A stretch of 64,000 bases of DNA from Clostridiales bacterium PH28_bin88 (GTDB lineage: Bacteria > Bacillota > PH28-bin88): positions 37,735 through 101,734 of the forward strand of contig LAKY01000049.1 in NCBI GenBank assembly GCA_000987045.1. The letters run 5' to 3'. The notes below the pieces were generated by a model that saw only the letters and a program-made list of their open reading frames with translations, made no database searches and was not told the origin of the DNA. This document shows, one piece after another, positions 9,981 to 64,000 of the stretch. The position numbers were made by a program, and so were the translations under genes. Position 1 is the stretch's first letter. Each line of letters begins with the position of its first letter.

Positions 9981-10048
9981 CCTGCAAGACACAGGAACCG
10001 TCCCCATGTCTTCTGCCTGCAAGACACCGGGAACCGTCCCCATGTCTT
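9981..10048 (+). repeat. Two tandem units of the GAACCGTCCCCATGTCTT arm motif
   Basis: cctgcaagacacaggaaccgtccccatgtctt followed by ctgcctgcaagacaccgggaaccgtccccatgtctt. Confidence 0.9.
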
Positions 10049-10065
10049 AAGCACAATATGCACAA

Positions 10066-13299: not shown

Positions 13300-13511
13300 A
13301 CCGATAACCCCATTTCAACCCGTCCTGTCAGAATCAAAGACATCTGTTTAATTCTTCACAAGGCGCTGTTCTCCTCTTACCGGGCCAGGAAAAATATTGG
13401 GAATAACCCCATTTCTTATTAAACGCTAAAGAAAACTCGGCTTGCGCTAAAAAGACTTGCCCATTTATGGGATTAGTCGCGTTGATGCCTCCACAAAGGA
13501 ATAGCCAATTT

Positions 13512-13712
13512 CTAGGTGCGGAAGCCTAGTTGCACAAAAATATATCGGCCTAATCCGCTCTGACCATAAGCATAGTATCTTCCATCCCGGCCTTTGCGAA
13601 TCAGGGGCTGACGATAGAAAACTTCTTCTACCTCTTCTACGCTAATACCTTGGCGCACAGGTTTCCAGTAGTGATTTAATTTCATAAATTCACATTCAAG
13701 AACCGCCCCCAA
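13512..13712 (-). pseudogene. BrnT-like (DUF497-type) toxin, C-terminally truncated copy
   Basis: YWKPVRQGISVEEVEEVFYRQPLIRKGRDGRYYAYGQSGLGRYIFV matches the 16444-16727 copy. It then diverges and lacks the ...RPITARGMTDDER end. Confidence 0.5.
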
Positions 13713-13860
13713 TGTGTTTTTCTAGACAGACAAGATGAAGAGAGCCGAAGCTCTCCTTTGGAAAGGTTTGTGCGGACGATCCCACTACCTGTGCAAGACA
13801 GGAGAACCGTCGCCATGTCTCCCATGTCTCCTGTCTCCCCAAAACTTCCGATTGTCCCCT

Positions 13861-14133
13861 CTAAGAACCGTCTCCTGCGTTAATCGCATAATGGAGCATC
13901 ATTCGAATAAATGCAGTATAACCAAGTCCATGTTTTCTGGCGACCCTCTTAATAGCCACCAAGTCTTCCTTCGGGATCCTAACAGTAATGTGAACCATTT
14001 CCGGCCTTTCAAACTCTATTTGGCTATCTTGCCATTCTAGTTCTTCTGTGTCTATACTGTCAAAGTACTCTGCCATCTCCTCAACACCAGCAAACTTTGG
14101 CATCTGTCTGTTATTGTTTTCTCCTTCCATCAT
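13861..14133 (-). CDS. BrnA/CopG-like RHH antitoxin
   Basis: C-terminus ITVRIPKEDLVAIKRVARKHGLGYTAFIRMMLHYAI resembles BrnA antitoxins (isiRl...K..A...G.gYQt). It lies downstream of a toxin fragment. Confidence 0.55.
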   Translation of the reverse strand: MMEGENNNRQMPKFAGVEEMAEYFDSIDTEELEWQDSQIEFERPEMVHITVRIPKEDLVAIKRVARKHGLGYTAFIRMMLHYAINAGDGS

Positions 14134-14154
14134 AGCGCCTCCTTTCAGAAGTAG

Positions 14155-14282
14155 TCATATCTCTTGCGTAACCGGATAGATGATACCATGACCTTCGTAG
14201 ATGAAAATAAAGGTTATGTACCTGCCTTCACCCGTTTTACCCAGGAAGCGATATGCTTTTTCCTTCGGGTTGCGATCAGCTA
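14155..14282 (-). pseudogene. C-terminal fragment of a BrnT-like toxin, truncated by the 155-nt repeat module
   Basis: KEKAYRFLGKTGEGRYITFIFIYEGHGIIYPVTQEI. The upstream part of the track ORF (14283-14373) is repeat-derived. Confidence 0.5.
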
Positions 14283-14437
14283 ATCCCCATAGTCCTGGCG
14301 CACGCGACTTCGTTCTTCTGGGGCCAATCGAAAATTTTGCCAGCAGGTAGTAGGTATAAGAATTACGGCTCAACAGTCAGAAAACACCTGACTATCGAGC
14401 CTTTTTGACGGGCAAAACTTCCGATTGATCCCTGTAC
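14283..14437 (+). repeat. Copy b of the conserved IS-associated module
   Basis: About 155 nt, near-identical to 8885-9054 and 17857-18030. It includes the hairpin GGCTCAACAGTCAG-aaaacac-CTGACTATCGAGCC plus TTTTT. Confidence 0.9.
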
Positions 14438-14461
14438 GAACCGTCCGCAATAACCCATAGT

Positions 14462-14761
14462 TTAGGAGTGCCAGGCACCATCCGACCCTTTTAAGTAAAT
14501 CGAATCAGGACAGATATCCAGAATTCTACCGTCCAACTCCCAGGTAATTGCTCCGTTTCCTTTGGAAATGAACACACGCTTGAATTTGTTCCAATCCTTT
14601 AAGGGTTCAAAAACTCCATATAGTTTGTCCTTCATATGGTATTTCCTTATTTCGCCATTATTAAATTCCACGACAAGTGTGTAATCGGGCCTGGCTTCAA
14701 CTCTGGTAGCCTTCTTTATTCCGGTTTCGAAATACTTCTTGGCAATAGCAATCTCGTCCAT
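14462..14761 (-). CDS. DUF2442-family protein
   Basis: VEARPDYTLVVEFNNGEIRKYHMKD...FEPLKD...ITWELDGRILDICPDSIY fits the DUF2442 pattern. Confidence 0.7.
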   Translation of the reverse strand: MDEIAIAKKYFETGIKKATRVEARPDYTLVVEFNNGEIRKYHMKDKLYGVFEPLKDWNKFKRVFISKGNGAITWELDGRILDICPDSIYLKGSDGAWHS

Positions 14762-14773
14762 CTTTCTTCACTC

Positions 14774-15034
14774 CTATTTTAGACCTTCAATGGGGAATAA
14801 TTCCTGATTTTTCGAAGCCAAATTCCACTCTTCAAAAAGCTCTTCTTGATGCAACGCCGCCCACCCTAAGACCATCTTTTCAATCTTGTTTGGAAGTTTA
14901 CCATGTAGTATTTCCAGTTCTCTTATATCAACTACCGCTTCTTGACCGGCATACTCAGCATGAAAATGTGGAGGCAAATGGTCTTCCCAGTACATGTAAA
15001 TCTTAATGCCTCTAAACTGGCAGATTATTGGCAA
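14774..15034 (-). CDS. DUF4160-family protein
   Basis: FRGIKIYMYWEDHLPPHFHAEYAGQEAVVDI is the DUF4160 signature. It is paired with a downstream DUF2442 gene, as is usual. Confidence 0.75.
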   Translation of the reverse strand: MPIICQFRGIKIYMYWEDHLPPHFHAEYAGQEAVVDIRELEILHGKLPNKIEKMVLGWAALHQEELFEEWNLASKNQELFPIEGLK

Positions 15035-15175
15035 TGGCTGTTACCTCCTTTTCTTGCCTTATTTTCTATTATACCATAAAAACTAGTGGAAACAACAAAT
15101 CCCTCCACGGCTCTACGGCCGGGGCGCCAAAAGGAAAAGGGATCCGCCCGAAGTCCGAACCCCTTCCCCTGTAAT

Positions 15176-15243
15176 AACCTTCCCCATGTCTTCCTCAATG
15201 TGTTTCCTGCCTGCAAGACAGCGGAACCGTCCCCCTTGTCTCA
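15176..15243 (+). repeat. Solo arm motifs of the GGGGAC-hairpin family
   Basis: ttccccatgtcttcc ... cctgcctgcaagacagcggaaccgtcccccttgtctc. Confidence 0.8.
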
Positions 15244-15400
15244 ATCGCCTCAAACAAGCCATAATCGCCGAAAATGGAACTTGACAAAATGGTGTGATGG
15301 TGTTCTCGCTGGGAGAGGTGTAAGAAATAATCCTGAGGATGGCCTCGAAACTATTGATTTAACAAGGGGTTGTATTTTTCGGCAATGGCTCTAAGGAGAA

Positions 15401-15658
15401 TTAAGGAGTACTAGGCACCGTCCCTCGTTTTTTCTGGCTATAATCGAAAACCGGTACCATAACCTTTTTCACTGGCTTATATTCCTGCTTCGCAAACTTC
15501 AGCAACATGTCCGTAACATCACAAGAATAAGTTCTCTCCCCGCATTTAGTGCAAACATCAGCAGGTACATTTTCCACAAAAATATACTTTCCGTCATCTT
15601 CATAACTAAATGTTACAGTTCGCTTTTCGGTTTTACCTCCGCAGAAAACACACTGCAT
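15401..15658 (-). CDS. YgiT/MqsA-type zinc-finger protein (putative antitoxin)
   Basis: CVFCGG...VENVPADVCTKCGERTY is a four-Cys YgiT-type finger. Confidence 0.7.
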   Translation of the reverse strand: MQCVFCGGKTEKRTVTFSYEDDGKYIFVENVPADVCTKCGERTYSCDVTDMLLKFAKQEYKPVKKVMVPVFDYSQKKRGTVPSTP

Positions 15659-15663
15659 AGCAA

Positions 15664-15960
15664 TTACCTCCTGATTTTATAGTCAATCCACTGTCCAGGA
15701 TCAGGTTCATAAATTGTAATAACTACTATCCTGGGAGGCAGAGAGAGTTGAACATGTAAAGGTCTTCCCTTCTTTGTTTGACCGTAAATAAGGCAGCTTG
15801 GTGAATACTTATCTTCAGGATACTCTTCGACAATTTCTCCGGTCAAAATCACTTCTTCTACTTCCAACCTATCGACCTGTCCCCATGTCTCTATAATGGT
15901 TCTCCCGAACCGTTGACATGACATGACTAGATCAACGGAATTCCATTGTATTAAAAACAT
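15664..15960 (-). CDS. DUF4258-family protein (putative toxin); N-terminus partly repeat-derived
   Basis: LEVEEVILTGEIVEEYPEDKYSPSCLIYGQTKKGRPLHVQLSLPPRIVVITIYEPDPGQW. The codons ETWGQV upstream are the gagacatggggaca repeat motif, so the true start is uncertain. Confidence 0.6.
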   Translation of the reverse strand: MFLIQWNSVDLVMSCQRFGRTIIETWGQVDRLEVEEVILTGEIVEEYPEDKYSPSCLIYGQTKKGRPLHVQLSLPPRIVVITIYEPDPGQWIDYKIRR

Positions 15961-16154
15961 CAGACTCTTTCAATTCACATTGAAGAAACATCCCCAATAT
16001 GCTGTTATTTTCAATCCAGTAACTGTTTTGAATGATAAATGAAGATAATTTCTATAATTCCCGTTTTTTTTAACCGGTAGACTATCCGAAATGGGTGAAG
16101 TAAGACATGGGAACTGTCCCCTTGTCTCCCTCCCAAAGTATTCTGTCTTTCCCC

Positions 16155-16484
16155 CTATCTTTCCTGCTTAATTTTCTCTGCCAACCACATCTTGATCATG
16201 GTCTGATAAGGGATCCCTTTACCCTCGGCGATTTTTTTTATTTGATTTAGATGCTTACTGTTGACCCGTATGTTTATTCTTGTAGTAGTGGGCCTTTCCC
16301 CTTCCATCTCGAAATCTACCGGCTCCAGTTGATTCCAATATGGTGCTGTGGAATGCGTTTCCCAATATTCGGCCGCCTGCTCGTCATCATGAATTCGGGG
16401 CATCTCAGGCACATTTTTCTTTTCTGGAAAGTTTTCTCCTTTTCTACCCACGTTGATGCTCCCTCCTGTAGAGTTTTCTTTCAT
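16155..16484 (-). CDS. BrnA/CopG-like RHH antitoxin
   Basis: INIRVNSKHLNQIKKIAEGKGIPYQTMIKMWLAEKI matches the BrnA C-terminal pattern. Confidence 0.6.
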   Translation of the reverse strand: MKENSTGGSINVGRKGENFPEKKNVPEMPRIHDDEQAAEYWETHSTAPYWNQLEPVDFEMEGERPTTTRINIRVNSKHLNQIKKIAEGKGIPYQTMIKMWLAEKIKQER

Positions 16485-16727
16485 CGTCAGTCATTCCCCT
16501 GGCAGTGATTGGTCTGATTATTCCTCTACCCTTGTACACAAATACCACAAAAATATATCGCCCTAATCCGCTCTGACCATAAGCATAGTACTATATCTTT
16601 CATCACGTCCTTTGCGAATCATGGGCTGATGATAGAAAACTTCTTCTGCCTCTTCTACGCTAATACCATGGCGTACAGGTTTCCAGTAGTTTGCTTCGTC
16701 CCATTTAAACGTCCTGCCCTTCAACAT
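16444..16727 (-). pseudogene. BrnT-like toxin with an internal frameshift (about 5-nt insertion)
   Basis: MLKGRTFKWDEANYWKPVRHGISVEEAEEVFYHQPMIRKGRDERY, then a stop. The shifted frame continues YAYGQSGLGRYIFVVFVYKGRGIIRPITARGMTDDERKLYRR. It overlaps the brnA-like start. Confidence 0.6.
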
Positions 16728-16986
16728 CAATTACCCCAACACCGCTGTACGTACATTGTACCCACGCATAAGACATTTGTCAACAACCAGCAGAAAGACA
16801 CTTCTTTGAAGTTATGAAGTTGTCTGTGACTTAATTTCGAAATTCACATTCAAGTACCGTCCCCATGTCTCCTCACACTCAACAATTTCTTTATTTTATT
16901 GGGATATGGATATGGAAAAGCTTCAGCGAAAGTACTATAATATAATAAGTAGAAGGGTTGACCCTGATTGAGGGGAATGACTTTTC

Positions 16987-17427
16987 GTGAGAATCTATCT
17001 TGATGCTTGCTGTCTCAACCGCCCTTTTGACGATCAGACCCAAGACCGAATCAGGTTGGAATCGGAGGCGGTTCTTTCAATTTTGAACCGTTGCCAGATG
17101 GGAGAATGGCAATTAATAGGCAGCGAAGCCCTAGATTATGAAATATTCAAGATACCGGATGATGACCGTAAGCAAAAAGTATTGATCCTCGCTGGTCTTG
17201 TCCAGTCGAAGGTATTCCTTGACGTAAAGGTGGTGCAACAGGCCAACCTGTTGCAGGAGGCCGGGTTAGCGGCTTTAGACGCCCTTCACATATCATGTGC
17301 CGAAAAAGGTGGGGCCAACGCCTTGCTTACTACTGATGACAGGTTGGTCCGACAGGCTGCGCGAACGAAAGCTCTAATCAAAATCACGGTGGCAAATCCG
17401 ATTAGCTGGCTAATGGAGGTGTTTTGA
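16987..17427 (+). CDS. PIN-domain nuclease (146 aa, GTG start)
   Basis: MRIYLDACCLNRPFDD... and ...LDALHISCAEKGGANALLTTDDRL show PIN-like acidic residues. Confidence 0.7.
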   Translation: MRIYLDACCLNRPFDDQTQDRIRLESEAVLSILNRCQMGEWQLIGSEALDYEIFKIPDDDRKQKVLILAGLVQSKVFLDVKVVQQANLLQEAGLAALDALHISCAEKGGANALLTTDDRLVRQAARTKALIKITVANPISWLMEVF

Positions 17428-17634
17428 ATGATACAAGATCAAGCCGCAACTCCCAACCAAATCAGGAAAGCTGGGATAGATGCCTTATCTAAAACCCTCG
17501 GTCCCGTAGGTATGACACGGTTTTTACAGCAGTTTGACCCAGGAAAAGGTGATTATACTAAAGAAAGAGAGCAGTGGCTTGGCAGAATAAGCATTGAACA
17601 GGTCGCCAAAGAGGTTCAGCGAGAGAAGGAGTAA
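17428..17634 (+). CDS. 68-aa partner of the PIN nuclease (putative antitoxin encoded downstream)
   Basis: The ATG follows the PIN stop with no gap. It is near-identical to 8030-8239. Confidence 0.55.
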   Translation: MIQDQAATPNQIRKAGIDALSKTLGPVGMTRFLQQFDPGKGDYTKEREQWLGRISIEQVAKEVQREKE

Positions 17635-17642
17635 AAATAAAT

Positions 17643-17680
17643 GGCCTTACCCTCAATTCAATGGGAAGGCCTTTTTTTTT
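17643..17680 (+). terminator. Rho-independent terminator
   Basis: GGCCTTACCC...GGGAAGGCC stem followed by T9. Confidence 0.75.
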
Positions 17681-17810
17681 GATAAGGTGGACCTTTTCGT
17701 CTTAGAGGTACCAGACCCTCCCGCCATTTACCAGGGTGTTCTTTTGTCGAATTTTTGGATTATCAGGTACCATTCTTTACGCGCAAGGGGAACCGTCCCC
17801 ATGTCTTCAC

Positions 17811-18030
17811 ATCAAGGAAATTGGCGAGTATATCCCGCCAAGTTACGCCAAAGGGAAAAGATTGAATCCCCATAGTCCTGGCGCACGCGACTTCGTTCTT
17901 CTGGGCCAATCGAAAATTTTGCCAGCAGGTAGTAAGTACAAGAATTACGGCTCAACAGTCAGTAAACACCTGACTATTGAGCCTTTTTGACGGGCAAAAC
18001 TTCCGATTGATCCCTGTAAGAACCGTCCCC
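17811..18030 (+). repeat. Copy c of the IS-associated module (includes tnpA codons IKEIGEY...)
   Basis: Near-identical to 8839-9054. It starts immediately after a gaaccgtccccatgtcttcac motif. Hairpin plus T5 at 17949-17988. Confidence 0.9.
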
Positions 18031-18791
18031 AGTGTCTCATGCACGGTCTGCCGTCCCCATGTCTTTGTAGACAGGAGAACCGTCCCCTTGTCTCCCAACT
18101 GTATCCATATCTTTCTAGATACTTCATCAATACCTTCCAGGCTGCCGTAAAAATCGTATTTTGTTCCATAAATATGCATCATTCGGTTGACCATAGCTAC
18201 GGCCTCAGCTCTAGTGGCTAGATGACGAGGGCGAAAGGTTTTGTCGGGGAACCCCCCTACCAGCTTTCTTTCAGAGGCAATCGCGATGCTTTGCTGTGCC
18301 CAAGCCGGAATTTGTTCTAAGTCTGCGTAAGCTGGTAGTACGGAGCGTTCTTCTTCAATCCGCAGGGCCCTCACCAGCATAACGGCCATGTCCATCCGGC
18401 GAATGTTTTCATTCGGCCGAAAGGTTCCATCGTCAAACCCCCTGATCATGCCTAGTTCGTAAGCGAGTTGAATATAACCCCTTGCCCAATGCTCGGCTCC
18501 CACGTCCCCAAAAACGGAAGGTACCGTTTCTAGAGCCCAGACCTCGTCCTCCATACCAAGCGCCTTAATTAGGATTTTGGCGAACTCTGCGCGAGTTATG
18601 TTATTTTTAGGTAGGAAAGTACCATTAGGATAACCGTCAACTACCCCCTGACTAGAAAGCAAGTCTATATCAAGCTGAGCCCAATGACCCTTTACGTCAT
18701 CAAAGGCAAGGGCAGCACCAGCAATACTAAACGTAGCACCAAGCAAACATAAAGAAAGGAAAAGACCAAGAAATATGAGTCTACGAGTCAT
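17952..18791 (-). pseudogene. N-terminal (signal peptide plus three SLH domains) fragment of an SLH/S8 protease paralogue
   Basis: Aligns to residues 1-225 or so of the 10066-13299 protein. Homology ends near 18095, where the reading frame runs into GGGGAC-family repeats. Confidence 0.7.
18017..18100 (+). repeat. Cluster of three GAACCGTCCCC-type arm motifs
   Basis: gaaccgtccccagtgtctc, ctgccgtccccatgtctt, gagaaccgtccccttgtctcc. Confidence 0.85.
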
Positions 18792-18975: not shown

Positions 18976-21546
18976 TTAGTTCTTGATGATGAGGTAGCGC
19001 AGGATGTTGTTGGTGTCGGACATTTCGGATCCGTCACCCTTGTCGATCGGGGTCAGAGAGTTGACCTTGTTGCCTTCAAAGATTTCGTCGAAGGCGATCG
19101 TCTTGGGCGTACCGGTCACGTCGTAGAGCTGAGTATCGCTGTTGACAAAGTACCATTCTCCGCCGATCTTAACAGCCTTGCTGCTGTAGTTGATTTCCTC
19201 AACAGTGTAAACAGTGTTTGACACGTCAATCTTGGTCACACTGGTGAGGTCGGTGCCGCTGGCCTGGAAGGTCACGAAGCTCTTGTAAGCAGAGTTAGTG
19301 TAACCAGCCGTCTCATCAACATCGTCGGCGTCGTAACGGGATACGGTGCCGTTCACGTTAAGCTTCAGGTAGTAGCCGTCAGCATCCCTACCCTTTTCTT
19401 GAACGACCGCGAACTTAGCCGCAGCAGCCGGGTTGCCAGAGAGTACCAAGTACTGCAGGTCTACACCGTCAGCCTTGAAGTAGTAGTAGGCATTGGCACC
19501 GTAAGTCTTCAACTCGGTCCAGTTGGAAACCTTCGGATCGGAAGCAACGTTCTTGAAGATTACGGTGCTGTCGGTCACGTTGTAGAAGGTTCCGTTGAGT
19601 TTCACGCGCTTGTTGTCGGTGTCGTAGCCGCCTACGTTACCATCGCTGGTGTTGGCATCCAGGATTTCAAGATTGTCGATGGCGCCATCGCTGGTGAGGT
19701 CGTACTTCACGAAGTAGCCCTTAACGATTTCGGCTACCGCGGCAACATCGTCACCGTCGTAAACAGTGCCGCCAACAGTCTTGATATTACTGTCAGCATT
19801 GACAGTGTAGGTCACCTTGCTGCCGTCGCCCAGTAAGAGCTTCACGTTGGCCAGGATGTCATAGGCAGCGCCGCCCTTGTAGACGAGGTCACGGCCGCGG
19901 ATAACGCCATACTGCTTGCTGGCAGCGCCGGTGTTACCTTTTACGAATTCGACATCGCCGTTGCTGTTCAGGGTCAGGGTAACAGCCTTGCCAAGCAGGC
20001 TCTCGAGGTCAGCCGTCATGGAAGCATTGGACTTATAGGTTTCGCCGCCGTCCAGAGAAACTATTGTCCGCTGAGCGGTGCCGTTGCTGGTGGCGAGTTC
20101 GTACTTGGTACCAGTTACCTTAATCCTCCAAGCACTGTCGGAGTCGTATTCCATGGACTCGAGGGTACCTTCTACCTTCTTGCCGCCGATGGTGACCTTG
20201 TAGTCAAGACCTTCGGCAGTGTTAGGGGAAATGCTAATGGTGTCGCCAGCCTGGATGGCGTCGAAACCAACTTCCTTGCCGCCCTTGAAGATCTTGTAGA
20301 CAGTCTCGTCGTCGCTGGCGTCGGTATTGAAGTTAGCCAGGTTAGCGTTCGTAGTTCCGGAAACAACAGTGATCCGCTTGGTGGTGGTGTTCACGCTCTT
20401 CACAATACCCGGTTGTGTCCCAGGGCTGCCCAGGCCGATGTAGTAAACCTGGTTGTCCTTGTTGAACTGCAGGGTGATGCTCGGAGCTTCGAGAGCGTAT
20501 GAGTAAGTACTACCACTTACAGTCAGAGTCCCCAGGCTTCCGGAGAGAATAGCATTGGTGGCCACAGTATAAGTCTTGTCGTCGTTCTTAACCTTAAAGC
20601 CACTGTTGGTCCCGCTGACAAATGCGCCAGTACCTTCCAAGGTGGCAGTAGCGTAGTCACTATTGCTCTTATCTTGTTCAGTGTCCTTCACTACGGTGAA
20701 ATCCTGAACGGTGGCAACAGCCACTTCGCCGTCCTTGTTGAGAACGAAGTCAACAAACTTGTTCTTCAGGCCATCGATGTTGCTTGCACCTGCGAAAGTG
20801 ACGGTCTTAGCAGCCTTCTTAGAGCCGCCAACGTAGCTGATGGTGTATTCGCCGTTACTTACGGTCCAGCCAGTCACGAAAGCGTCATCAATGACAGAAC
20901 CCTTGTAGTTCTTAACAACCAACTTTTCGGCCGGGGTCTTCCCGTCAACAAAGCTGTCGGTGTCTTTGTCGTACTTGACCCAGTTTTGGTCTAGTGTTGC
21001 GTCAACAATAGCAAACACATCGCCACGTACCGAAGGAGCCTTGGCATCGAAGCTCAGGTCATCGGTAATCCCAAGCTCAACGGCCTTTGCGAGGTAATCT
21101 ACCGGCCAACTGCCAGGTAGGTTGTCGTTGTAGCCAAGGATGCGCAGTACGACTGTCAGAACCTCGGCGTAGCTGATTTTGTCGTTGGGACGGAAGGTAC
21201 CAGCAGGATCGCCCTTCACAAACCCTTTTGCAGCTGCCAGGTTAATCCAACCAGTATACCATTCGCCGGTCTTAACGTCGCTGAACTGGGAAGGAGTATT
21301 CTTCATCAGGTCAGCAGCTTCTTTTAGACCTGCAGTCACTATTGCAACTTTAGCAAATTCTGCACGAGTAATGTTCTTGTCTAGGCCAAAGGTCCCATCG
21401 GGATACCCTTCAACGATTCCCATCGCGTTCAGCTTAGTAGCGGCGTTTTCTTGAATGGTAGCCGCGCCAGCCGTCATGGGAACAGCCAAGCTGAGAACGA
21501 AGGTTAGTGCGACGATTAGAGCGATGAGTTTCTTGTGGCTCTTCAT
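18976..21546 (-). CDS. S-layer protein (three N-terminal SLH domains, large Thr/Gly/Asp/Val-rich body)
   Basis: Signal peptide ending AGA. SLH repeats are present (GIVEGYPDGTFGLDKNITRAEFAKV; FSDVKTGEWYTGWINLAAAKGFVKG). The acidic low-complexity body is typical of S-layer proteins, and there is a long upstream untranslated region. Confidence 0.8.
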   Translation of the reverse strand: MKSHKKLIALIVALTFVLSLAVPMTAGAATIQENAATKLNAMGIVEGYPDGTFGLDKNITRAEFAKVAIVTAGLKEAADLMKNTPSQFSDVKTGEWYTGWINLAAAKGFVKGDPAGTFRPNDKISYAEVLTVVLRILGYNDNLPGSWPVDYLAKAVELGITDDLSFDAKAPSVRGDVFAIVDATLDQNWVKYDKDTDSFVDGKTPAEKLVVKNYKGSVIDDAFVTGWTVSNGEYTISYVGGSKKAAKTVTFAGASNIDGLKNKFVDFVLNKDGEVAVATVQDFTVVKDTEQDKSNSDYATATLEGTGAFVSGTNSGFKVKNDDKTYTVATNAILSGSLGTLTVSGSTYSYALEAPSITLQFNKDNQVYYIGLGSPGTQPGIVKSVNTTTKRITVVSGTTNANLANFNTDASDDETVYKIFKGGKEVGFDAIQAGDTISISPNTAEGLDYKVTIGGKKVEGTLESMEYDSDSAWRIKVTGTKYELATSNGTAQRTIVSLDGGETYKSNASMTADLESLLGKAVTLTLNSNGDVEFVKGNTGAASKQYGVIRGRDLVYKGGAAYDILANVKLLLGDGSKVTYTVNADSNIKTVGGTVYDGDDVAAVAEIVKGYFVKYDLTSDGAIDNLEILDANTSDGNVGGYDTDNKRVKLNGTFYNVTDSTVIFKNVASDPKVSNWTELKTYGANAYYYFKADGVDLQYLVLSGNPAAAAKFAVVQEKGRDADGYYLKLNVNGTVSRYDADDVDETAGYTNSAYKSFVTFQASGTDLTSVTKIDVSNTVYTVEEINYSSKAVKIGGEWYFVNSDTQLYDVTGTPKTIAFDEIFEGNKVNSLTPIDKGDGSEMSDTNNILRYLIIKN

Positions 21547-22054: not shown

Positions 22055-22783
22055 TCATTTTTTCAAGGATTCTTTGAGGACGAGCAAAGCGAACTTGGGG
22101 AGGGCCAGCATGCGGCCGGCGCGCCTGGGTTCTTTTAAGAGGCGGTAGAGCCACTCCAGTTTAAGCCTCTGGAAGGCCTCGGGGGCGCGTTTGGCCTTGC
22201 CCGCCAGCACGTCCAGGGTGCCGCCGATGCCGATGAGGACCGGGACCTTAAGTTGGTCCATGTGCTCCCGGATCCAGTACTCCTGCTTGGGCGCCCCCAG
22301 GGCGACCAGGAGGATGTCGGGTTTTGTTTTTTGTATACTGCTCAACAGGCCTTTTTGCCCCTGGGCGTCCAGGTAGCCGTGGGAGGTGCCCGCGATCTGG
22401 ATGCCGGGGTATTCCTCCACCATTTTACGGGCGGCTTCCTCGGCGACGCCGGGGGCGGCGCCGTAGAGGAAGATGCGCCAGCCCTTGATGGCCGCGGTGG
22501 GGAGGATGGCCTGCACCAGGTCGATGCCGGTCACCCGCTCGGGTACGGGGGTACCCAGTTTTCCGGCGGCCCACACCACCCCGGCCCCGTCGGGGGTAAC
22601 CAGGTGGGCGGAGTTGATGATATCCTTTAAAGCGGGCTCGTGCTGGGCCCGATAAATGATTTCGGCGTTAAGGGTGATGATGTGGTGGGGGGTACCTTCC
22701 TTGATATACTCCTCCACCTTTTCCAGGGTACCTTGCATGTCCACGGGGTCAACCAGGGTCCCCAGGACGGATACTTTCTTCAT
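22055..22783 (-). CDS. tagA: WecG/TagA/CpsF family (GT26) glycosyltransferase
   Basis: VTPDGAGVVWAAGKLG, LLVALGAPKQEYWI, LEWLYRLLKEPRR. I prefer the start MKKVSVLG at 22783. Confidence 0.85.
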   Translation of the reverse strand: MKKVSVLGTLVDPVDMQGTLEKVEEYIKEGTPHHIITLNAEIIYRAQHEPALKDIINSAHLVTPDGAGVVWAAGKLGTPVPERVTGIDLVQAILPTAAIKGWRIFLYGAAPGVAEEAARKMVEEYPGIQIAGTSHGYLDAQGQKGLLSSIQKTKPDILLVALGAPKQEYWIREHMDQLKVPVLIGIGGTLDVLAGKAKRAPEAFQRLKLEWLYRLLKEPRRAGRMLALPKFALLVLKESLKK

Positions 22784-22813
22784 TCCCACTTCTAACCTCT
22801 CACTTCTCACTTC
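22784..22813. repeat. Tandem heptamers (minus strand GAGAAGT x3-4) filling the LCP-tagA spacer
   Basis: cccacttctaacctctcacttctcacttct. Confidence 0.8.
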
Positions 22814-23794
22814 TCAATTGGCTGCCATCTTGTTGACTATTTCTTTCGTCTTTTCGTCGGAAGGGACCCAGTAGCTGATGCCCTTGATGTACTCGGGGTT
22901 GCCGGGCAGGGTGGCGGTTTCTATCTTGGCGGCGCCGGCGTCCTTGAACACCTTGGCCAGGCCAAGCATTTCTTTGAAGTTCAGGTCGGTGCGCACCTGG
23001 GCCTGCACTTCCTTGATCAGTTCGGGCAGCTTCCACACGGTGCTGATGCTTAAAGCCTGGTCCGCCAGGGCAACCAGGAACTTCTGCTGGCGTTTGATGC
23101 GGGTGGTATCGTCCCCGTCATTCCTGTAGCGGACGTACTGCAGGGCCTTATCCCCGTCCAGGCGCTGGAGGCCGGGGTAGAGGTCGATGCCCTCAAGGGC
23201 GTACTCCATGCGCTTCTCCACCTCTATTTCCACTCCGCCCAGGATGTCGATCACCGCGGCAAAGCCCTGGAAATTGACCTCCACAGACCGCTTGACGTCT
23301 ATGTCCAGGAAGTCTTCCACCGTCTGGGCCAAGAGACTTGGCCCGCCATAGGCGTGGGCGTGGCCGATCTTCTCCTTGCTGGACCTGCCGGGGATCTTGA
23401 CATAGGTGTCCCGGGGGATGGAGAGGACGCTGATCCTGGATTCCTTGTCGTCGATAAAGGCCACCATGATGGTGTCCGCCCGGGAAGGCTCGTTGGCGCG
23501 CTGGTCGACCCCTATTAAAAGGATGCCGCCGGGCCGCTTTTCTTCGGCGGGCGTGCCGGTTTTATCCGGTTTTTGGGAATCATCGGGATCGTTAATTACG
23601 CTGCCGATAAAGTTGTCCGCCAGCTGGTACCCCACGTAGGCGAAGGCGAAAAAGGCAAGCAGGATTAACGCTAAAGCAGGTAAAATATAAGAAGACTTTC
23701 TCCGCTTCTTTTTTCTCAGTTGCGGACGCCGCGGGGAATCGCCCCAGAATTCGTCGTATTCGTAATGCCTGTAGTCTTTGGGCACGGGATACAC
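22814..23794 (-). CDS. LytR-CpsA-Psr (LCP) family cell-wall polymer transferase
   Basis: TM anchor, then ILLIGVDQRANEPSRADTIMVAFIDDKESRISVLSIPRDTYV. GTG start with a GGGGGG RBS. Confidence 0.85.
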   Translation of the reverse strand: MYPVPKDYRHYEYDEFWGDSPRRPQLRKKKRRKSSYILPALALILLAFFAFAYVGYQLADNFIGSVINDPDDSQKPDKTGTPAEEKRPGGILLIGVDQRANEPSRADTIMVAFIDDKESRISVLSIPRDTYVKIPGRSSKEKIGHAHAYGGPSLLAQTVEDFLDIDVKRSVEVNFQGFAAVIDILGGVEIEVEKRMEYALEGIDLYPGLQRLDGDKALQYVRYRNDGDDTTRIKRQQKFLVALADQALSISTVWKLPELIKEVQAQVRTDLNFKEMLGLAKVFKDAGAAKIETATLPGNPEYIKGISYWVPSDEKTKEIVNKMAAN

Positions 23795-23804: not shown

Positions 23805-23833
23805 GTGACTGGCTGCTAGTGACCGGTGACTAT
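23805..23833. repeat. Heptamer-type repeats (GTGACTN)
   Basis: gtgactggctgctagtgaccggtgactat, directly upstream of the LCP RBS. Confidence 0.7.
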
Positions 23834-24003
23834 GGAGACATGGGGACTGGAGACATGGGCGAGACATGGGGACGGTTCCATCGTCTTCCCGATTAAGGAA
23901 TGGGGACACACCTGCTGAAGCCCGGGCTGGTCTTTGGGGACAGGAATGTCCCCAACTATGCTTCGCTACGCTCCGGGGACAATCGAACCGTCCCCATGTC
24001 TCC
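23834..24003 (+). repeat. GGGGAC-hairpin palindromic element, full form with extra left-arm units
   Basis: gagacatgggg x3, then GGGGACGGTTCCATCG...central module...GGGGACAATCGAACCGTCCCCATGTCTCC. Confidence 0.9.
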
Positions 24004-24093
24004 TTCAGTATAATGATAGCCGGTTACGTTTTATAGTAGACGTTTGATGAGACCGGTTTGTTCCCGGAACGCATAAATTTTTTCTCTGGGAGT

Positions 24094-24708: not shown

Positions 24709-24742
24709 CGAAAGAGTCCTCCGCACTCACGCGCACGCTACG

Positions 24743-24877
24743 CCACGGGGACGGTTCCATCGTCTCCCCGATTAAGGAATGGGGACACACCTGCTGAAGC
24801 CCGGGCTGGTCTTTTGGGACAGGAATGTCCCCAACTATGCTTCGCTTCGCTCCGGGGACAATCGAACCGTCCCCATG
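24743..24877 (+). repeat. GGGGAC-hairpin palindromic element, full about 135-bp form
   Basis: CCACGGGGACGGTTCCATCGTCTCCCCGATTAAGGAATGGGGACAC...TGTCCCC...GGGGACAATCGAACCGTCCCCATGG. Near-identical to 49778-49913. Confidence 0.95.
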
Positions 24878-25238
24878 GCTCCGCTCGCATACTCGCGCAT
24901 ACTTTAGATTAGATTTCCTGTTAGCTGCCGCTATATAGGTTTCGACAGCAGGCGGGGTTTTCCTGTCCGCTCCGATGGGAAAATCCATGGTACATCAGGA
25001 AAAAATCAGCTTAAAAAAATTTTTAAAAAAATTAAAATTGGAGAAGGATTCTTAGCAAGCAAGTGGAATATAATAAACCGAGAGAAGTTTGGTAGTGTAG
25101 AGATTTGTACTAGTTTTCACTTAGTCAGCGCTACCGTCACAGTAACAACTTTTTATTTATCCGTGGTTTGTGCTTGTGTTCACATGTTTTAACAGTCTTA
25201 CCGAAGTCTTACTTAAATCGAAAGGGGGCGTTGGAGAG

Positions 25239-25410: not shown

Positions 25411-25434
25411 TAGTGACTAGTGACTGGTGACTGG
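25411..25434. repeat. Tandem heptamers GTGACTA/GTGACTG
   Basis: tagtgactagtgactggtgactgg, between convergent gene ends. Confidence 0.85.
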
Positions 25435-26403
25435 CAAAGGACGCGAAAACGCGTCCTTTTCTCTTTTGGTAAGGTCGTAGATGATGCCGCCGAGCCAGGT
25501 GGAGGGAATCAGGAGCACCGGTTCCCCCGCCTGCAAAGTAACGGTCCCCCAGGCGACCACCTTGGGGATGGCGGCGGTGTCCACCTCCCGGGCAATGCGG
25601 TAATGGAGCCAGAGGTTTTCCGGGTTGATGGCGAAGTCGGTCTCCAGGTAGCGGTGAAAGGCCAGCACCAGCGCGGGCAGGTGGATAAAGTACACCCGGG
25701 GGCGGGTGAGTTCGGCCAGGAGGGCTCCCAGGATGCGGTCGTCCCGGGGGCTGATCTCCATGGTAAAAAGGTTTTCCAGCTCCACCTCCTGGCCGTCCAC
25801 CACGATCGGGTTGACAAACTTTTTGACCTCGGACAGGACCCGGCGGTCGATGCGGACGTAGTACGCAATGTCCACTGAAAGTGCTTCCTCCAACAGCGGC
25901 ACGAGGGCTTTTGGTCCGGCTTCCCGGAAAACGCTTTCCAGGGGGGACGTCCGGTCAAGGGCCGTCCTGACCGGGAAAAAGACCGCCCCGGAACGGAAGT
26001 CTTCCTTATAATTGATGCTGTACACCGCGGTCATGAGCAGTTGGTCGCCGTCGGCCCCCAGGAAGAGGACGTTCAGGTTGTCGGTTTCCCGGTTCCTTAG
26101 CGGCAGGTTTGGCGCGAGTTGGGCCGGTTGTTTCACCGGCAGGGGGGTAGCATTGTCTGGCCGGGCTGAAGTGACGGGGTTAATGGGAGCAGGCGCCGGG
26201 GGTGCCGCCACCTCCGGGGGTTCCGGGACGGTGGACGGCGAAGACTCCGGTTCGGTAAATTTGTATTCCGCCAGGGTGATCGTACCGGCAGGCGGGTATG
26301 AAGGGGGAGCGGCGTGTTTCGTTTGAAACGACAGGGGTTCCGGACCTGCCAGGGTGATGACAAGAAACAGGCTGAAAGAAATAAGCCATCCGGCTTTTTT
26401 CAT
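25417..26403 (-). CDS. Secreted/membrane-anchored protein with a divergent LCP-like region
   Basis: Start MKKAGWLISFSLFLVITLAG (GGGAGG RBS), a Pro-rich linker, then NVLFLGADGDQLLMTAVYSINYKEDFRSGAVFFPVRT, which resembles the LCP core. The 3-prime end reads through the heptamer and terminator sequence, so the stop is uncertain. Confidence 0.5.
   Translation of the reverse strand: MKKAGWLISFSLFLVITLAGPEPLSFQTKHAAPPSYPPAGTITLAEYKFTEPESSPSTVPEPPEVAAPPAPAPINPVTSARPDNATPLPVKQPAQLAPNLPLRNRETDNLNVLFLGADGDQLLMTAVYSINYKEDFRSGAVFFPVRTALDRTSPLESVFREAGPKALVPLLEEALSVDIAYYVRIDRRVLSEVKKFVNPIVVDGQEVELENLFTMEISPRDDRILGALLAELTRPRVYFIHLPALVLAFHRYLETDFAINPENLWLHYRIAREVDTAAIPKVVAWGTVTLQAGEPVLLIPSTWLGGIIYDLTKREKDAFSRPLPVTSH
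25436..25468 (+). terminator. Rho-independent terminator
   Basis: AAAGGACGCG-aaaa-CGCGTCCTTT followed by TCTCTTTTGG. Confidence 0.75.
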
Positions 26404-26442: not shown

Positions 26443-26595
26443 GAGACACGGGGACGGTTCCATCGGGAGAGACACGGGGACGGTTCCATCGTCTTCCCTT
26501 CGGCCCTTCGCTACGCTTCGGGGACGCTCGAACCGTCCCCATGTCTCCTCGAACCGTCCCCATGTCTCCTCGGGACGATCGAACCGTCCCCATGG
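26443..26595 (+). repeat. GGGGAC-hairpin element, short form (2 left arms, no central module, 3 right arms)
   Basis: gagacacggggacggttccatcg x2 ... cgaaccgtccccatgtctcct x2, then cgaaccgtccccatgg. Confidence 0.9.
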
Positions 26596-26720
26596 CTACG
26601 CTTTCTTTTTGCTTTGGGCAATTCTTTCCTATTTTTTACCTCCCCTGTGCTTCATATACATGGGATTCCGGGCATACTGGTGTATAATAGAGGTATTATA
26701 AGCCAAAGGAGTTGGAAGAG

Positions 26721-27420: not shown

Positions 27421-27870
27421 TTAACGGATGAACATGGGTATCAAGATGCCGGCAAAGCCGACTACCAGCGCCACAAAAATCCCGATGATCCAGCGGCTGA
27501 TTGAATGGATCTCTTGATGCAAGGAGTCCACTTTCTGATCGACTGTTTTAATTTCGCCGCGGAGCTTCGCTTCTACGATATCAATTTTGTTGCTTAAGGA
27601 TTTTTCTACGTTGTCAATCCGGTTGCTTAAGGATTTTTCTACGTTATCAATTCTGTTGCTCAAGGATGTTTCAACGTTATCAGTTCTGTTGCCTAGAGAA
27701 TCGATCCTTGCACTTAATTTTTCGTCAAATGCCTTGATTTCGCTACGGAGATTCGCTTCCATGGTGTCCATACGGTGGAGCAGGTATCCCAGGAAATCGA
27801 AGCCCCGTGGAAACCTGGGAAAATCGTCGTCAGTCCCGGCGGCTATTTCCTTTCTGGTCTCATCCGGCAT
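27421..27870 (-). CDS. Coiled-coil protein with 11-residue tandem repeats and a C-terminal TM anchor (DUF1640-like)
   Basis: GGGAGGGAGG RBS, then MPDETRKE. Repeats SNRIDNVEKSL x3-4. C-terminal IIGIFVALVVGFAGILIPMFI. Confidence 0.6.
   Translation of the reverse strand: MPDETRKEIAAGTDDDFPRFPRGFDFLGYLLHRMDTMEANLRSEIKAFDEKLSARIDSLGNRTDNVETSLSNRIDNVEKSLSNRIDNVEKSLSNKIDIVEAKLRGEIKTVDQKVDSLHQEIHSISRWIIGIFVALVVGFAGILIPMFIR
27589..27707. repeat. 33-bp in-frame tandem repeat (3.6 units)
   Basis: gttgcttaaggatttttctacgttgtcaatccg repeated with a few substitutions. Confidence 0.9.
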
Positions 27871-27987
27871 TGCCAGGGCACCTCCCTCCCTTACGCCCAT
27901 CATAACATGTTTGAACCCTTGCTACAATGTTAGACGATCTTCCTGGTGGCGGCCACCAGGCCGTTGTTCTGGAGCACCAGCTATTAT

Positions 27988-29797: not shown

Positions 29798-29840
29798 GCG
29801 CCCGACTCCCTTCTCGCATTAGTGACTAGCTGTTAAGTAC

Positions 29841-29880
29841 GCCATGCTACGCTTCGGGGACGCTCGAACCGTCCCCATGG
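29841..29880 (+). repeat. Solo right-arm hairpin of the GGGGAC family
   Basis: gctacgcttcGGGGACgctcgaaccGTCCCCatgg, 44 nt upstream of the mbl start. Confidence 0.85.
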
Positions 29881-30040
29881 CTCCCGTTGGAAATTTGAAA
29901 TGAGAAGATGAAGAAAATGAGAAAAGTCCCGAGAAAGCGTTCCGATTGCAGGCTGTGGGTGCTTGTCTACCGTAAGCCTCTCCTGAACGCTCTAGGACTT
30001 TTCTATTTCGGCAGAAGGGAGGGAAATTCCTCCAAAATTT

Positions 30041-34530: not shown

Positions 34531-34550
34531 CAGTGACTGGTGACCAGTGG
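34531..34550. repeat. Heptamer-type repeats just upstream of the murA RBS
   Basis: cagtgactggtgaccagtgg. Confidence 0.7.
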
Positions 34551-49751: not shown

Positions 49752-49777
49752 CCCCCTTTGCTCAGAATTCAGCTACG

Positions 49778-49913
49778 CCATGGGGACGGTTCCATCGTCT
49801 CCCCGATTAAGGAATGGGGACACACCTGCTGAAGCCCGGGCTGGTCTTTTGGGACAGGAATGTCCCCAACTAAGCTTCGCTACGTTTCGGGGACGCTCGA
49901 ACCGTCCCCATGG
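49778..49913 (+). repeat. GGGGAC-hairpin palindromic element, full form, inside the operon
   Basis: CCATGGGGACGGTTCCATCG...GGGGACGCTCGAACCGTCCCCATGG. Near-identical to 24743-24877. Confidence 0.95.
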
Positions 49914-49945
49914 CTCCGCTTACTTTTACCAAACCGTTCTCTCAT

Positions 49946-49965
49946 TCTGACTCCTGACTCCTGAA
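49946..49965. repeat. Tandem heptamers (minus strand TCAGGAG)
   Basis: tctgactcctgactcctgaa, directly after the stop of 49966-51150. Confidence 0.8.
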
Positions 49966-56206: not shown

Positions 56207-56264
56207 TGATTCGGTCGTCGGAAGTCAGATGTCAGAATTCAGGGTTCCTAATTCAGGGTTCCTG
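56207..56264. repeat. Heptamer/14-mer tandem repeats in the atpD-atpC spacer
   Basis: The minus strand reads AGGAACCCTGAATT x2, then CTGACAT CTGACTT CCGACGA CCGAATC, running into AGGAGG. Confidence 0.85.
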
Positions 56265-56269
56265 GCCCG

Positions 56270-56298
56270 CCATGGGGACGCTCGAACCGTCCCCATGG
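56270..56298. repeat. Minimal GGGGAC hairpin (10-bp stem)
   Basis: CCATGGGGAC-gctcgaacc-GTCCCCATGG. Confidence 0.95.
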
Positions 56299-56350
56299 CT
56301 CTGGTCGGGTTTCCCCTCCAACCTCCGACCTCTCACTTCCCACTTCCCAA

Positions 56351-61266: not shown

Positions 61267-61300
61267 TAGTGGTCAGTAGTCAGGAGTCAGTAGTCAGGGG
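61267..61300. repeat. Tandem heptamers upstream of the atpF RBS
   Basis: The minus strand reads CTGACTA CTGACTC CTGACTA CTGACCA CTAAGAA GGGAGG. Confidence 0.9.
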
Positions 61301-61514
61301 AAAAAACCAAAAGACTGGAAAAGGAGCAACTTGAAACACCAGTCTTCGGTGGCTGACCACTGGCCACGATGAATGTTATCAGCAGCCGGTCCGCGAACCT
61401 GAAGCTAGCGTAACCGGCCAGTATTCCGGATCAGTGGGAAACAGCATTTGGGCGAATAAGAGTGGATCCCGGGGAAGCGCCTCTTATTCGCCCATGGTTC
61501 CTGCATCCTTCGAT

Positions 61515-61739
61515 TTAGAGCTTGGTCCACATCAGGATGGCAATAACGAAGGAAAAGAGCGTCAGCGCTTCCATGAACGCCAGAGACAGCAACAGTATGG
61601 TTTGGATGTTACCGGAGGCCTCCGGTTGACGGGCAATACCCTCCATGGCCCGGGCAGCGGCATTACCTTGACCCAGGGCAGACCCCAGAGCGGCCATACC
61701 GATAGCCAGACCTACACCGATGAAACCAAGAGCTTCCAT
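61515..61739 (-). CDS. atpE: Fo ATP synthase subunit c
   Basis: 74-aa hairpin proteolipid with ARQPE loop and conserved carboxylate helix (AFMEALTLF). Confidence 0.95.
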
Positions 61740-61766
61740 TGTATCGTTTCCCCCCTTTCAGATTCC

Positions 61767-61809
61767 AGTGACTAGTGACTAGTGACTGGTGACTAGTAGT
61801 GGTGACTAA
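61767..61809. repeat. Heptamer array GTGACTA x6 (left arm of inverted arrays)
   Basis: agtgactagtgactagtgactggtgactagtagtggtgactaa. Confidence 0.9.
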
Positions 61810-61974
61810 TAACCGTTAAGGTTATTAGTCGGGTTGAGGCTTTTAGCAGCTCCTGTATTAAAGAGCTTTTCAGTTGGGAAAAGCCGCCTACTCCAGTTAA
61901 CTTGACAGCCCCCCAACTTGTCCGCACGCGACCTTTCTGCTTCTCCTTGTGCCTAACTCTTCGCGCCCCCTGGG

Positions 61975-62009
61975 AACTAGTCACTAGTCACCAGTAACTA
62001 GTCACTAAC
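61975..62009. repeat. Heptamer array TAGTCAC x4 (right arm, inverted relative to 61767-61809)
   Basis: aactagtcactagtcaccagtaactagtcactaac. Confidence 0.9.
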
Positions 62010-63094: not shown

Positions 63095-63113
63095 TTAGTG
63101 GTCAGTGGTCGGG
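63095..63113. repeat. Heptamer-type repeats
   Basis: ttagtggtcagtggtcggg. Confidence 0.7.
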
Positions 63114-63810: not shown

Positions 63811-63836
63811 TAGTGGTTAGTGGCCACTGGTAGCGG
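63811..63836. repeat. Heptamer-type repeats upstream of the small ORF RBS
   Basis: tagtggttagtggccactggtagcgg. A further tcagatgtcaggagg is at 63906-63922. Confidence 0.7.
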
Positions 63837-64000
63837 TACGATGTGAGCGGGATGATGTCCCGGGACTTCCCGGGGGTTGGTTTGCCCGGTTGTCCTGGAC
63901 TAATGGGTCAGATGTCAGGAGGAAAATTAGAGTAAAACCGCATATTCTTTAGGTAAACCCTTTACCGGAATGCGCCGTAAAGCCTCTGGCTTTAGCCATG

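Follow-up and report, generated by a model that had tools for sequence, protein, structure and literature searches.

The window analyzed here is a stretch of 64,000 nucleotides (nt) from Clostridiales bacterium PH28_bin88 (contig LAKY01000049.1, positions 37,735 to 101,734). Nearly all of its genes lie on the minus strand, and short tandem arrays of heptanucleotides, the subject of this analysis, are scattered between them. Gene assignments rest on rough codon-usage calls and Pfam. These confirmed the names TagA/WecG, LCP, MurA-family and AtpC given in an initial annotation, as well as the rest of the atp operon, and added MreB, an aldehyde:ferredoxin oxidoreductase (AFOR) and a FAD-dependent oxidoreductase (DAO) in the vicinity of arrays. 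Arrays are found inside the atp transcription unit, which is bounded by a promoter-like site at about 63590 and by a terminator at about 55570.

The initial annotation had listed 13 sites, and upon inspection of the sequence, all of them hold the heptamers described. Six are weak, with 1.5-3 degenerate units (marked as weak below), and a clear array right behind the atpD stop codon (56315-56349) had been overlooked. One range, 56207-56264, had been set too wide: the heptamer array covers 56207-56242, while 56236-56263 is a separate, exact 14-nt duplication (two copies of AATTCAGGGTTCCT) between the atpC-proximal array and a hairpin resembling repetitive extragenic palindromes (REP). This makes about 14 sites in 64 kb, all intergenic. 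They are listed below, with units of minus-strand sites in mRNA sense and with SD for Shine-Dalgarno sequence, ORF for open reading frame and TRF for Tandem Repeats Finder.

63906-63922, minus strand: weak site about 110 nt upstream of a 44-aa ORF; two units, CCTGACA TCTGACC
63811-63836, minus strand: weak SD-proximal site upstream of the same ORF; CTACCAGTGGCCACTAACCACTAAAAGGAGG, holding the perfect palindrome AGTGGCCACT
63095-63113, minus strand: weak array 54 nt upstream of atpI; two units, GACCACT GACCACT AA
61740-62009, minus strand: atpB-atpE spacer, 270 nt, a composite palindromic element
61975-62009, minus strand: array 0 nt from the atpB stop codon; about 4.6 units GTGACTA/GTTACTG (TRF, 4.6 copies)
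61767-61809, minus strand: atpE-upstream array; about six units TAGTCAC/CAGTCAC (TRF, 6.1 copies), ending 27 nt ahead of the atpE ATG and abutting a GGGGGG SD
61267-61300, minus strand: atpF-upstream array; CTGACTA CTGACTC CTGACTA CTGACCA CTAAGAAGGGAGG (TRF, 3.9 copies), with a weak partner CCAGTGGTCAG about 90 nt upstream
56315-56349, minus strand: array beginning 1 nt behind the atpD stop codon; GGGAAGT GGGAAGT GAGAGGT CGGAGGT TGGAGG (lag scan score 13)
56207-56242, minus strand: atpC-upstream array; TCTGACA TCTGACT TCCGACG ACCGAAT CAGGAGG (TRF)
49946-49965, minus strand: array directly after the DAO stop codon, 194 nt upstream of the AFOR gene; 2.6 units GGAGTCA
34531-34550, minus strand: weak SD-proximal array upstream of the murA-family gene; CCACTGGTCACCAGTCACTG then AATCGGGAGG, about 2.7 degenerate units
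29819-29830, minus strand: weak site 21 nt upstream of mreB, adjoining a solo REP-like hairpin; 1.7 units CTAGTCACTAA
25411-25434, read on the plus strand: TAGTGAC TAGTGAC TGGTGAC TGG, 4 nt past the stop of a possible plus-strand 78-aa ORF and overlapping the stop of a 352-aa ORF on the minus strand without a Pfam match
23805-23833, minus strand: weak, degenerate SD-proximal array ATAGTCACCGGTCACTAGCAGCCAGTCAC, 10 nt from the LCP GTG start, adjoining a repeat that resembles a miniature inverted-repeat transposable element (MITE)
22784-22813, minus strand: four to five units GAAGTGA (TRF, 4.9 copies), filling the 30-nt LCP-tagA spacer and supplying an SD-like GAGG

The last of these would be partly coding if tagA started at the GTG at 22810. 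In the array upstream of atpF, the last unit merges into the SD, as the initial annotation had remarked. The plus-strand array at 25411-25434 is directly followed by a terminator-like plus-strand hairpin (GGACGCGAAAACGCGTCC, then a T-run; 25435-25465), which lies within the 3' end of the candidate 352-aa minus-strand ORF.

A genome-wide tandem-repeat search with period 7 had been proposed in the initial annotation; on the 64-kb window, such a search yielded a strong over-representation. TRF reported period-7 arrays at 22783-22816, 25413-25434, 49947-49964, 56217-56242, 61272-61298, 61767-61808 and 61976-62007. A lag-identity scan with a score of at least 10 returned seven arrays at period 7 and none at periods 4, 5, 6, 8 and 10. 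With a score of at least 8, there were nine arrays, whereas 100 second-order Markov shuffles gave 1.4 on average and never more than 5. No short period other than 7 is enriched in the window. The units form one family, AGTSACY/CTGACTN and derivatives, seen as AGTCACY, CTGACTN, CCACTAA and GAAGTGA. AGTCACT is palindromic save for its center base (its reverse complement is AGTGACT), so that the two orientations differ at one of seven bases. When the whole window was scanned with Rfam, no family reached the gathering score.

That the arrays are chance matches or assembly artefacts can practically be dismissed. In its favor, several of the listed sites consist of only 1.5-2 degenerate units, but the shuffle and period controls reject chance. 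In addition, the same arrays are present in four independent assemblies, and arrays also occur in the finished genome of a cultured relative (see below).

Arrays at the edges of intergenic spacers

Spacers make up 13% of the region 18.9-64 kb and hold all arrays but one, the only in-gene exception being a short period-7 repeat of 2.1 units at 20166-20180. The intergenic location claimed initially is thus upheld. The spacers are, however, not generally short: most host spacers measure 128-299 nt, with the arrays at their extreme edges. This hugging of the edges has a Fisher-combined p = 8e-4 (8e-7 without the 16-nt SD zone). In the same region, AGTCAC/GTGACT is enriched in intergenic DNA (p = 6e-7). 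The hexamer ACTAGT, which contains CTAG, occurs nine times in intergenic and not once in coding DNA (18900-64000; p = 1e-8), and all nine copies lie within heptamer arrays.

The arrays had been described as typically adjoining the SD of a minus-strand gene. This applies to about eight of them but does not hold as a rule, as three to four arrays start 0-4 nt behind a stop codon. SD adjacency is one half of a two-sided pattern, in which arrays occupy both spacer edges in complementary orientation and can pair into hairpins. The SD-proximal arrays are pyrimidine-rich in mRNA sense (YAGTCAC, CTGACTN, CCACTAA or TCTGACA) and are found upstream of atpE, atpF, atpC, murA, LCP, mreB, atpI and the 44-aa ORF. 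Their orientation is consistent across these eight sites, and at each of them, a canonical SD (GGAGG, GGGAGG or GGGGGG) separates the array from the start codon. Arrays starting 0-2 nt past a stop codon are of the complementary G-rich type (GTGACTR/GGAGTCA) and follow atpB (61975-62009), atpD (56315-56349) and DAO (49946-49965); for the possible plus-strand gene, 25411-25434 is a further post-stop array. Orientation and position are associated (C-rich on the SD side, G-rich on the stop side; Fisher p = 0.006).

Both arms are present in two spacers, atpB-atpE and atpD-atpC, and are predicted to pair into long hairpins. In the atpB-atpE spacer (61740-62009), a G-type arm comes first and a C-type arm last, and the core of about 165 nt between them has hairpins of its own. 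The predicted minimum free energy of the spacer is -110.5 kcal/mol (z = -4.85; none of 200 shuffles was as stable), with 61975-62009 as the 5' arm and 61767-61809 as the 3' arm, the latter predicted to be paired with the former (P(unpaired) 0.16). The corresponding values for the atpD-atpC spacer are -79.8 kcal/mol, z = -5.5 and again 0 of 200 shuffles; here, 56315-56349 is the predicted 5' arm and 56207-56242 the 3' arm. For lone arrays, no significant structure is predicted (z = -0.2 and -1.7, the latter for 34531-34550).

A strong hairpin of another kind (GGGCGAATAAGAG...CTCTTATTCGCCC, 61450-61493) lies in the minus-strand transcript directly downstream of atpE, the gene for the ATP synthase c subunit. 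Its sequence is conserved in four loci of relatives (L125, L272, L274, L275), in contrast to the remainder of the spacer. The hairpin is a candidate mRNA stabilizer or attenuator for c-subunit stoichiometry.

Turnover between strains and distribution among genomes

Four contigs from different samples (L001-L004), which encode the c-subunit protein and match the window at about 97% identity over coding DNA, were compared with it in the atpE neighborhood. Slippage had been considered initially as an origin of the arrays, and copy-number polymorphism between strains as a check. In L001, the atpF-upstream array has exactly one extra 7-nt unit, along with point changes, and this exact 7-nt difference supports slippage. 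Unit numbers differ upstream of atpE, too. The atpB-atpE spacer is wholly replaced in all four contigs: it has no post-stop array, contains about 12 units in the same orientation and shows no significant fold (z = -1.3). In L001, the atpI-upstream site (63095-63113) has diverged, and both sites upstream of the 44-aa ORF (63811-63836 and 63906-63922) are identical to those of the window. The initial annotation had considered that the repeats might be restricted to the window. L001 contains one more array beyond the window, and arrays are also found in Zhaonella and in other phyla.

The AtpB homologs point to Bacillota related to Moorella, Thermanaeromonas and Zhaonella, with Thermanaeromonas, Zhaonella and Moorella as the best named relatives. 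Metagenome-assembled genomes and contigs with 74-87% AtpB identity (L125, L272/L273, L275) have no intergenic period-7 arrays. The atpD-atpC spacer is 12-17 nt long in relatives (L125, L272, L274) versus 157 nt in the window, and the atpB-atpE spacer is 55-102 nt long in array-free relatives versus 270 nt. Because the spacers of relatives are short and free of arrays, the arrays and the sequence between them would be insertions between the stop codon and the SD. Such an insertion would also be the reason why the arms touch both gene boundaries. The lack of arrays in the nearest relatives argues against an essential function.

The two-sided layout recurs in Zhaonella formicivorans, a cultured organism with a finished genome (CP085524.1) and 69% AtpB identity. 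A locus of 20.7 kb contains 11 period-7 arrays, and 0-2 arrays at each of the other short periods. Of its 18 spacers, about 12 have the structure stop-(CAGCYNN)n ... (GCTGRNN)n-SD-start, with a unit that differs from that of the window; array-bearing spacers include atpB-atpE, atpE-atpF and delta-alpha. Two of the spacers have the same AT-rich core of about 100 nt between the heptamer arms. The predicted hairpins have z from -2.6 to -8.3, and in that at 3468-3615, the base of the predicted stem pairs the stop-codon region with the SD. The G/C polarity with respect to the SD is the reverse of that in the window.

Two ideas about the arrays were rejected. The supply of stop codons in all three frames as their purpose does not hold generally, as GGAGTCA, GGGAAGT, CAGTCAC and the Zhaonella 5' arm CAGCTAT (mRNA sense) contain none. 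A filter that keeps G-rich, SD-like arrays away from the real SD was dropped because of the reversed polarity in Zhaonella, where the SD-proximal arms are of the G-rich GCTGRNG type.

A distribution scan with exact (YAGTCAC)3, using one genome per species, returned at least 120 stretches. The matches listed come from Dialister (many), Acidaminococcus, Peptococcaceae, Clostridia, cyanobacteria, Bacteroidota, Planctomycetota, Acidobacteriota, Gemmatimonadota, Streptomyces and others. In 855 kb of the listed array-bearing loci, there are at least 166 exact arrays of three or more copies at period 7, and 0-9 at each of the other periods from 4 to 11. Other units found in these loci are CCCCAGT, AATCCCT and AACCCTG. 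In cyanobacterial loci and those of other phyla, (YAGTCAC)n grades into CCCCAGT-type units, a transition seen only in genomes other than that of the window. Among the matches listed, inverted pairs within 600 nt favor 5'-(GTGACTR)n...(YAGTCAC)n-3' (15 vs 4). In the same set, with crude ORFs, orientation shows no bias with respect to downstream starts across phyla (23 vs 22), and stop-proximal orientation in low-GC loci is split 16 vs 12. A large excess of ORFs ending inside G-type arrays was discarded as an artefact because those arrays carry stop codons.

The initial annotation knew of no equivalent in Firmicutes. Similar arrays are, however, carried by genomes of Zhaonella formicivorans, Dialister, Peptococcaceae and Clostridia; what stands is that no description of such arrays was found in the literature for Firmicutes or for Zhaonella. 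On viral contigs, (YAGTCAC)3 arrays occur on 44 stretches. Of two scrambled units used as controls, YACGTCA occurs on 5 stretches and YCAGACT on 82, a control that is only partly informative because YCAGACT is itself a natural family.

Contig L128 (48% GC), a metagenome contig from a different organism, contains stop-(TCAGTAG)n...(CTGACTA)n-SD pairs. It has in common with the window the array at 49946-49965 together with a flank of 17 nt (AGTCAGAATGAGAGAACGGTTTG). Window spacers and L128 gave alignments so mosaic that no common element could be defined. In Dialister and in one contig placed in a Fusicatenibacter bin (L013, L022, L057, L089, L090), a conserved motif of about 30 nt (TAAATANGGCGATGCCNGAAAGNNGCATTT) precedes the heptamer arrays, which suggests a dispersed element that ends in an array.

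Possible origin and role of the arrays

We propose, with a probability of roughly 0.55, that these repeats, which are of the short tandemly repeated repetitive (STRR) type, are the arms of palindromic intergenic insertions that change their size by slippage and are, for the most part, selfish or neutral. The heptamer arrays would form the arms of insertion-like elements lodged between a stop codon and the next SD. These arms would grow, shrink and decay in 7-nt steps via slipped-strand mispairing and recombination, and would persist solely in untranslated spacer, because a 7-nt unit, mostly with stop codons, would not be tolerated in coding DNA. As the original spacers were tiny, the element would represent nearly the whole present spacer, which would bring its arms into contact with the stop codon on one side and the SD on the other. 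A long intercistronic stem-loop is predicted for transcripts that retain both arms, and an arm on its own would be a half-element. Such elements would be mainly selfish or near-neutral and might, at most, provide strain-variable tuning of mRNA segment stability or translational coupling.

Several points weigh against this proposal. Neutral slippage alone leaves the unit family common to many loci and the polarity of the pairs unexplained, so that some copying, mobility or selection is needed in addition, and no transposase or target-site duplication could be tied to the arrays. Gene calling in the comparison loci was crude. For the orientation rule in the window there is a confounder: nearly all genes are on one strand, so that the directions of transcription and replication are inseparable, as is also the case for L128 and the Zhaonella locus. 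Finally, the presence of arrays in the atpB-atpE and atpE-atpF spacers of both the window organism and Zhaonella could reflect selection and not mere permissiveness.

This last point leads to a less probable alternative, to which we still attach some weight. The stop-to-SD hairpins and the lone pyrimidine-rich leaders may be selected post-transcriptional cis-elements, through which translational coupling, processing by RNase III or the stability of segments within operons would be set; a raised output of the ATP synthase c subunit would be one example. Arrays lie within the atp transcription unit, and their positions match stop codons and SD sites exactly; entire spacers are enclosed by predicted stems of 30-45 bp, with that at Zhaonella 3468-3615 joining the stop region to the SD; and the atpB-atpE and atpE-atpF spacers bear arrays independently in two lineages. 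There are also precedents in the hairpins proposed for STRR sequences (PMC2670836) and in an RNase III case from Haemophilus (PMC12721329). The four strain contigs, however, do without the inverted atpB-atpE arrangement (spacer fold z = -1.3), relatives with 74-87% AtpB identity have tiny, array-free spacers, and lone arrays are unstructured (z = -0.2 and -1.7). In addition, the G/C polarity with respect to the SD is reversed in Zhaonella, and the matches listed show no orientation bias across phyla (starts 23 vs 22; stops, in low-GC loci, 16 vs 12).

The window contains a second repeat family, a MITE-like element of about 150 nt, which also resembles the REP doublets called REPINs and has inverted ends of the GGGGACGGTTC type (CCATGGGGACGGTTC...GAACCGTCCCCATGG). 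It is often found 30 nt or less from heptamer arrays, apparently in the loop between arms. In a metagenome scan with the GGGGACGGTTC end, 14 contigs with a GC content of 41-60% were retrieved, L128 among them, in which period 7 again leads (10 arrays vs 0-2). The copies in the window are as follows.

23858-24006, 24737-24885 and 49772-49920: three copies of the 150-nt element, 91-95% identical
29835-29884, 56253-56302, 26499-26599 and 9979-10048: solo hairpins of the same family

The heptamer arrays themselves could be terminal inverted repeats of a mobile, non-autonomous MITE- or REPIN-like element, moved into the stop/SD junction by a transposase. We regard this as unlikely. One intrinsic polarity is preferred in inverted pairs (15 vs 4 among the matches listed), two Zhaonella spacers have a core of about 100 nt in common, as have the window and L128 an array with its 17-nt flank, and (YAGTCAC)3 occurs on 44 viral-contig stretches, all of which a mobile element could account for. 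Arrays are also often beside the 150-nt element with inverted GGGGACGGTTC ends, and the window contains a truncated ORF for an IS200-like Y1 transposase (Y1_Tnp, 8734-9087). This fragment is, however, flanked by GGGGACGGTTC-type hairpins and not by heptamer arrays, and it may be the REP-associated transposase of those hairpins. The sequences enclosed by the arms vary in length from 11 to >500 nt and for the most part bear no relation to each other, no target-site duplications and no full-length autonomous copies were found, and arm length shifts in 7-nt steps, as is typical of slippage.

The Y1 transposase fragment is situated in a toxin-antitoxin-rich island (7800-18100) between paralogous subtilase genes with S-layer-homology (SLH) domains, which contains several segmental duplications (families D2-D19).

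7809-8033 and 16987-17427: PIN domains
9061-9399: MazF/PemK toxin
16155-16484: CopG antitoxin
within the island: DUF4258/DUF2442 pair

Another tandem repeat of the window has a unit of 33 nt (TTCTACGTTATCAATTCTGTTGCTTAAGGATTT, 27571-27692, 3.7 copies, 86% identity) and overlaps the ORF 27421-27903. With a period divisible by three, it may encode a repeat protein.

That the arrays are bound by a multimeric, sequence-specific protein and define a regulon is a far less probable explanation. The protein would be an RNA-binding one of the HutP or TRAP type, or a DNA-binding one. HutP binds UAG-N4 repeats, and (UAGUCAC)n presents a UAG every 7 nt. One unit family is common to many loci, and MacGregor proposed the same idea for TAACTGA repeats (PMC4679880). 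It is difficult to reconcile with this that the units are heterogeneous and often devoid of UAG (CTGACTN, CCACTAA, GAAGTGA), that both orientations occur in transcripts, that the flanked genes are functionally unrelated and that close relatives lack the arrays. No candidate binding protein was found in the window.

It is tempting to speculate that heptamer-armed hairpins constitute an undescribed class of self-propagating intergenic elements, with tandem heptamers as their terminal inverted repeats. These would insert precisely between stop codon and SD in the operons of many phyla and, in the form of intercistronic stem-loops, would adjust translational coupling, processing by RNase III and the stoichiometry of subunits, e.g., of ATP synthase. 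We consider this improbable; if true, it would supply the long-missing function of STRR-type repeats. Zhaonella formicivorans, in which the same layout is pervasive, is a tractable place to decide between junk, mobile element and intercistronic regulator. The arrays may also be useful as hypervariable strain markers.

Comparison with known repeat systems

STRR heptanucleotide sequences were reportedly described by Mazel et al. in 1990 from heterocystous cyanobacteria. Their canonical units are CCCCAGT, TTGGTCA and CAACAGT. The comparison with STRRs made in the initial annotation is apt, as the arrays, which are dispersed over the 64 kb of the window, are likewise intergenic tandem repetitions of 7-nt units (TRF and lag scan) from a related sequence family. 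STRR hairpins lie between hupS and hupL and were proposed to stabilize transcripts or to couple translation (PMC2670836), and the window arrays, too, are able to form hairpins between consecutive operon genes. They differ in their host, which is an uncultured, Moorella-like bacterium of the Bacillota and not a heterocystous cyanobacterium, and in their units (AGTSACY/CTGACTN, CCACTAA, GAAGTGA), which are one to two bases off the canonical ones. They are also short (2-6 units) and strictly positioned at the stop edge or the SD edge. To this kind of repeat, the present analysis adds its occurrence in Moorella-like Bacillota, the complementary layout of stop arm and SD arm, and the turnover between strains.

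Long simple sequence repeats (LSSRs) are defined as tandem units of 5-11 nt that are longer or more frequent than expected; as far as the account in PMC4679880 goes, heptameric LSSRs were found by Mrazek et al. (2007) to be over-represented in scattered bacterial lineages. Intergenic over-representation, length variation between close relatives and inverted pairs were reported for the heptamers GGGAATC of Xanthomonas and GGGGAYT of Nostoc, for which polymerase slippage was proposed (PMC4692102). The window arrays resemble these in their excess over chance at period 7 (nine arrays vs a mean of 1.4), in their intergenic location, in the variation of length and sequence among relatives, with a 7-nt indel upstream of atpF, and in the occasional inverted pairs able to form stem-loops. 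Unlike those heptamers, the window units are not G-rich and cannot form G-quadruplexes, and the layout of stop edge and SD edge with its orientation rule is unreported for those repeats, LSSRs included.

In marine Beggiatoaceae, cyanobacteria and Bacteroidetes, TAACTGA direct repeats closely precede start codons (MacGregor 2015, PMC4679880). Common features are a heptamer in 2-6 copies, a mostly intergenic location upstream of starts in one orientation, stop codons within units, a patchy phylogeny and a similar composition (TAACTGA vs TACTGAC). In Beggiatoaceae, however, the repeats usually take the place of a recognizable ribosome-binding site, with about 1 nt left between their end and the start, whereas the window keeps a canonical SD and has inverted partner arrays behind stop codons. 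No TAACTGA arrays were found in the window, the nearest unit being TACTGAC.

REP elements can stabilize upstream mRNA. Two spacers of the window contain stable predicted palindromes (z = -4.85 and -5.5), and the lone arrays do not (z = -0.2 and -1.7). Like REP sequences, bacterial interspersed mosaic elements and REPINs of proteobacteria (PMC3116915), the arrays are intergenic and dispersed and, in part, predicted to form hairpins, and they occur in operons beside stop codons and as inverted doublets. Their arms, however, are tandem heptamers of variable copy number and not a fixed palindrome of 20-40 nt. A separate family of REP-like GGGGACGGTTC hairpins coexists with them in the window, and it is this family that flanks the candidate REP-associated tyrosine transposase.

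In Haemophilus influenzae, 7-bp repeats upstream of hmw1A and hmw2A are phase-variable (PMC8262952, PMC12721329), and a 7-bp repeat in the 5' untranslated region acts through RNase III (PMC12721329). These repeats share with the window arrays a heptanucleotide unit in a 5' untranslated region and a copy number altered by slippage, presumably so in the window; an effect mediated by RNA structure and RNase III is a feature of their own. In Haemophilus, a host-adapted pathogen, the repeats are long arrays that control adhesins at single contingency loci, whereas the window has many short arrays beside the housekeeping genes of an environmental anaerobe.

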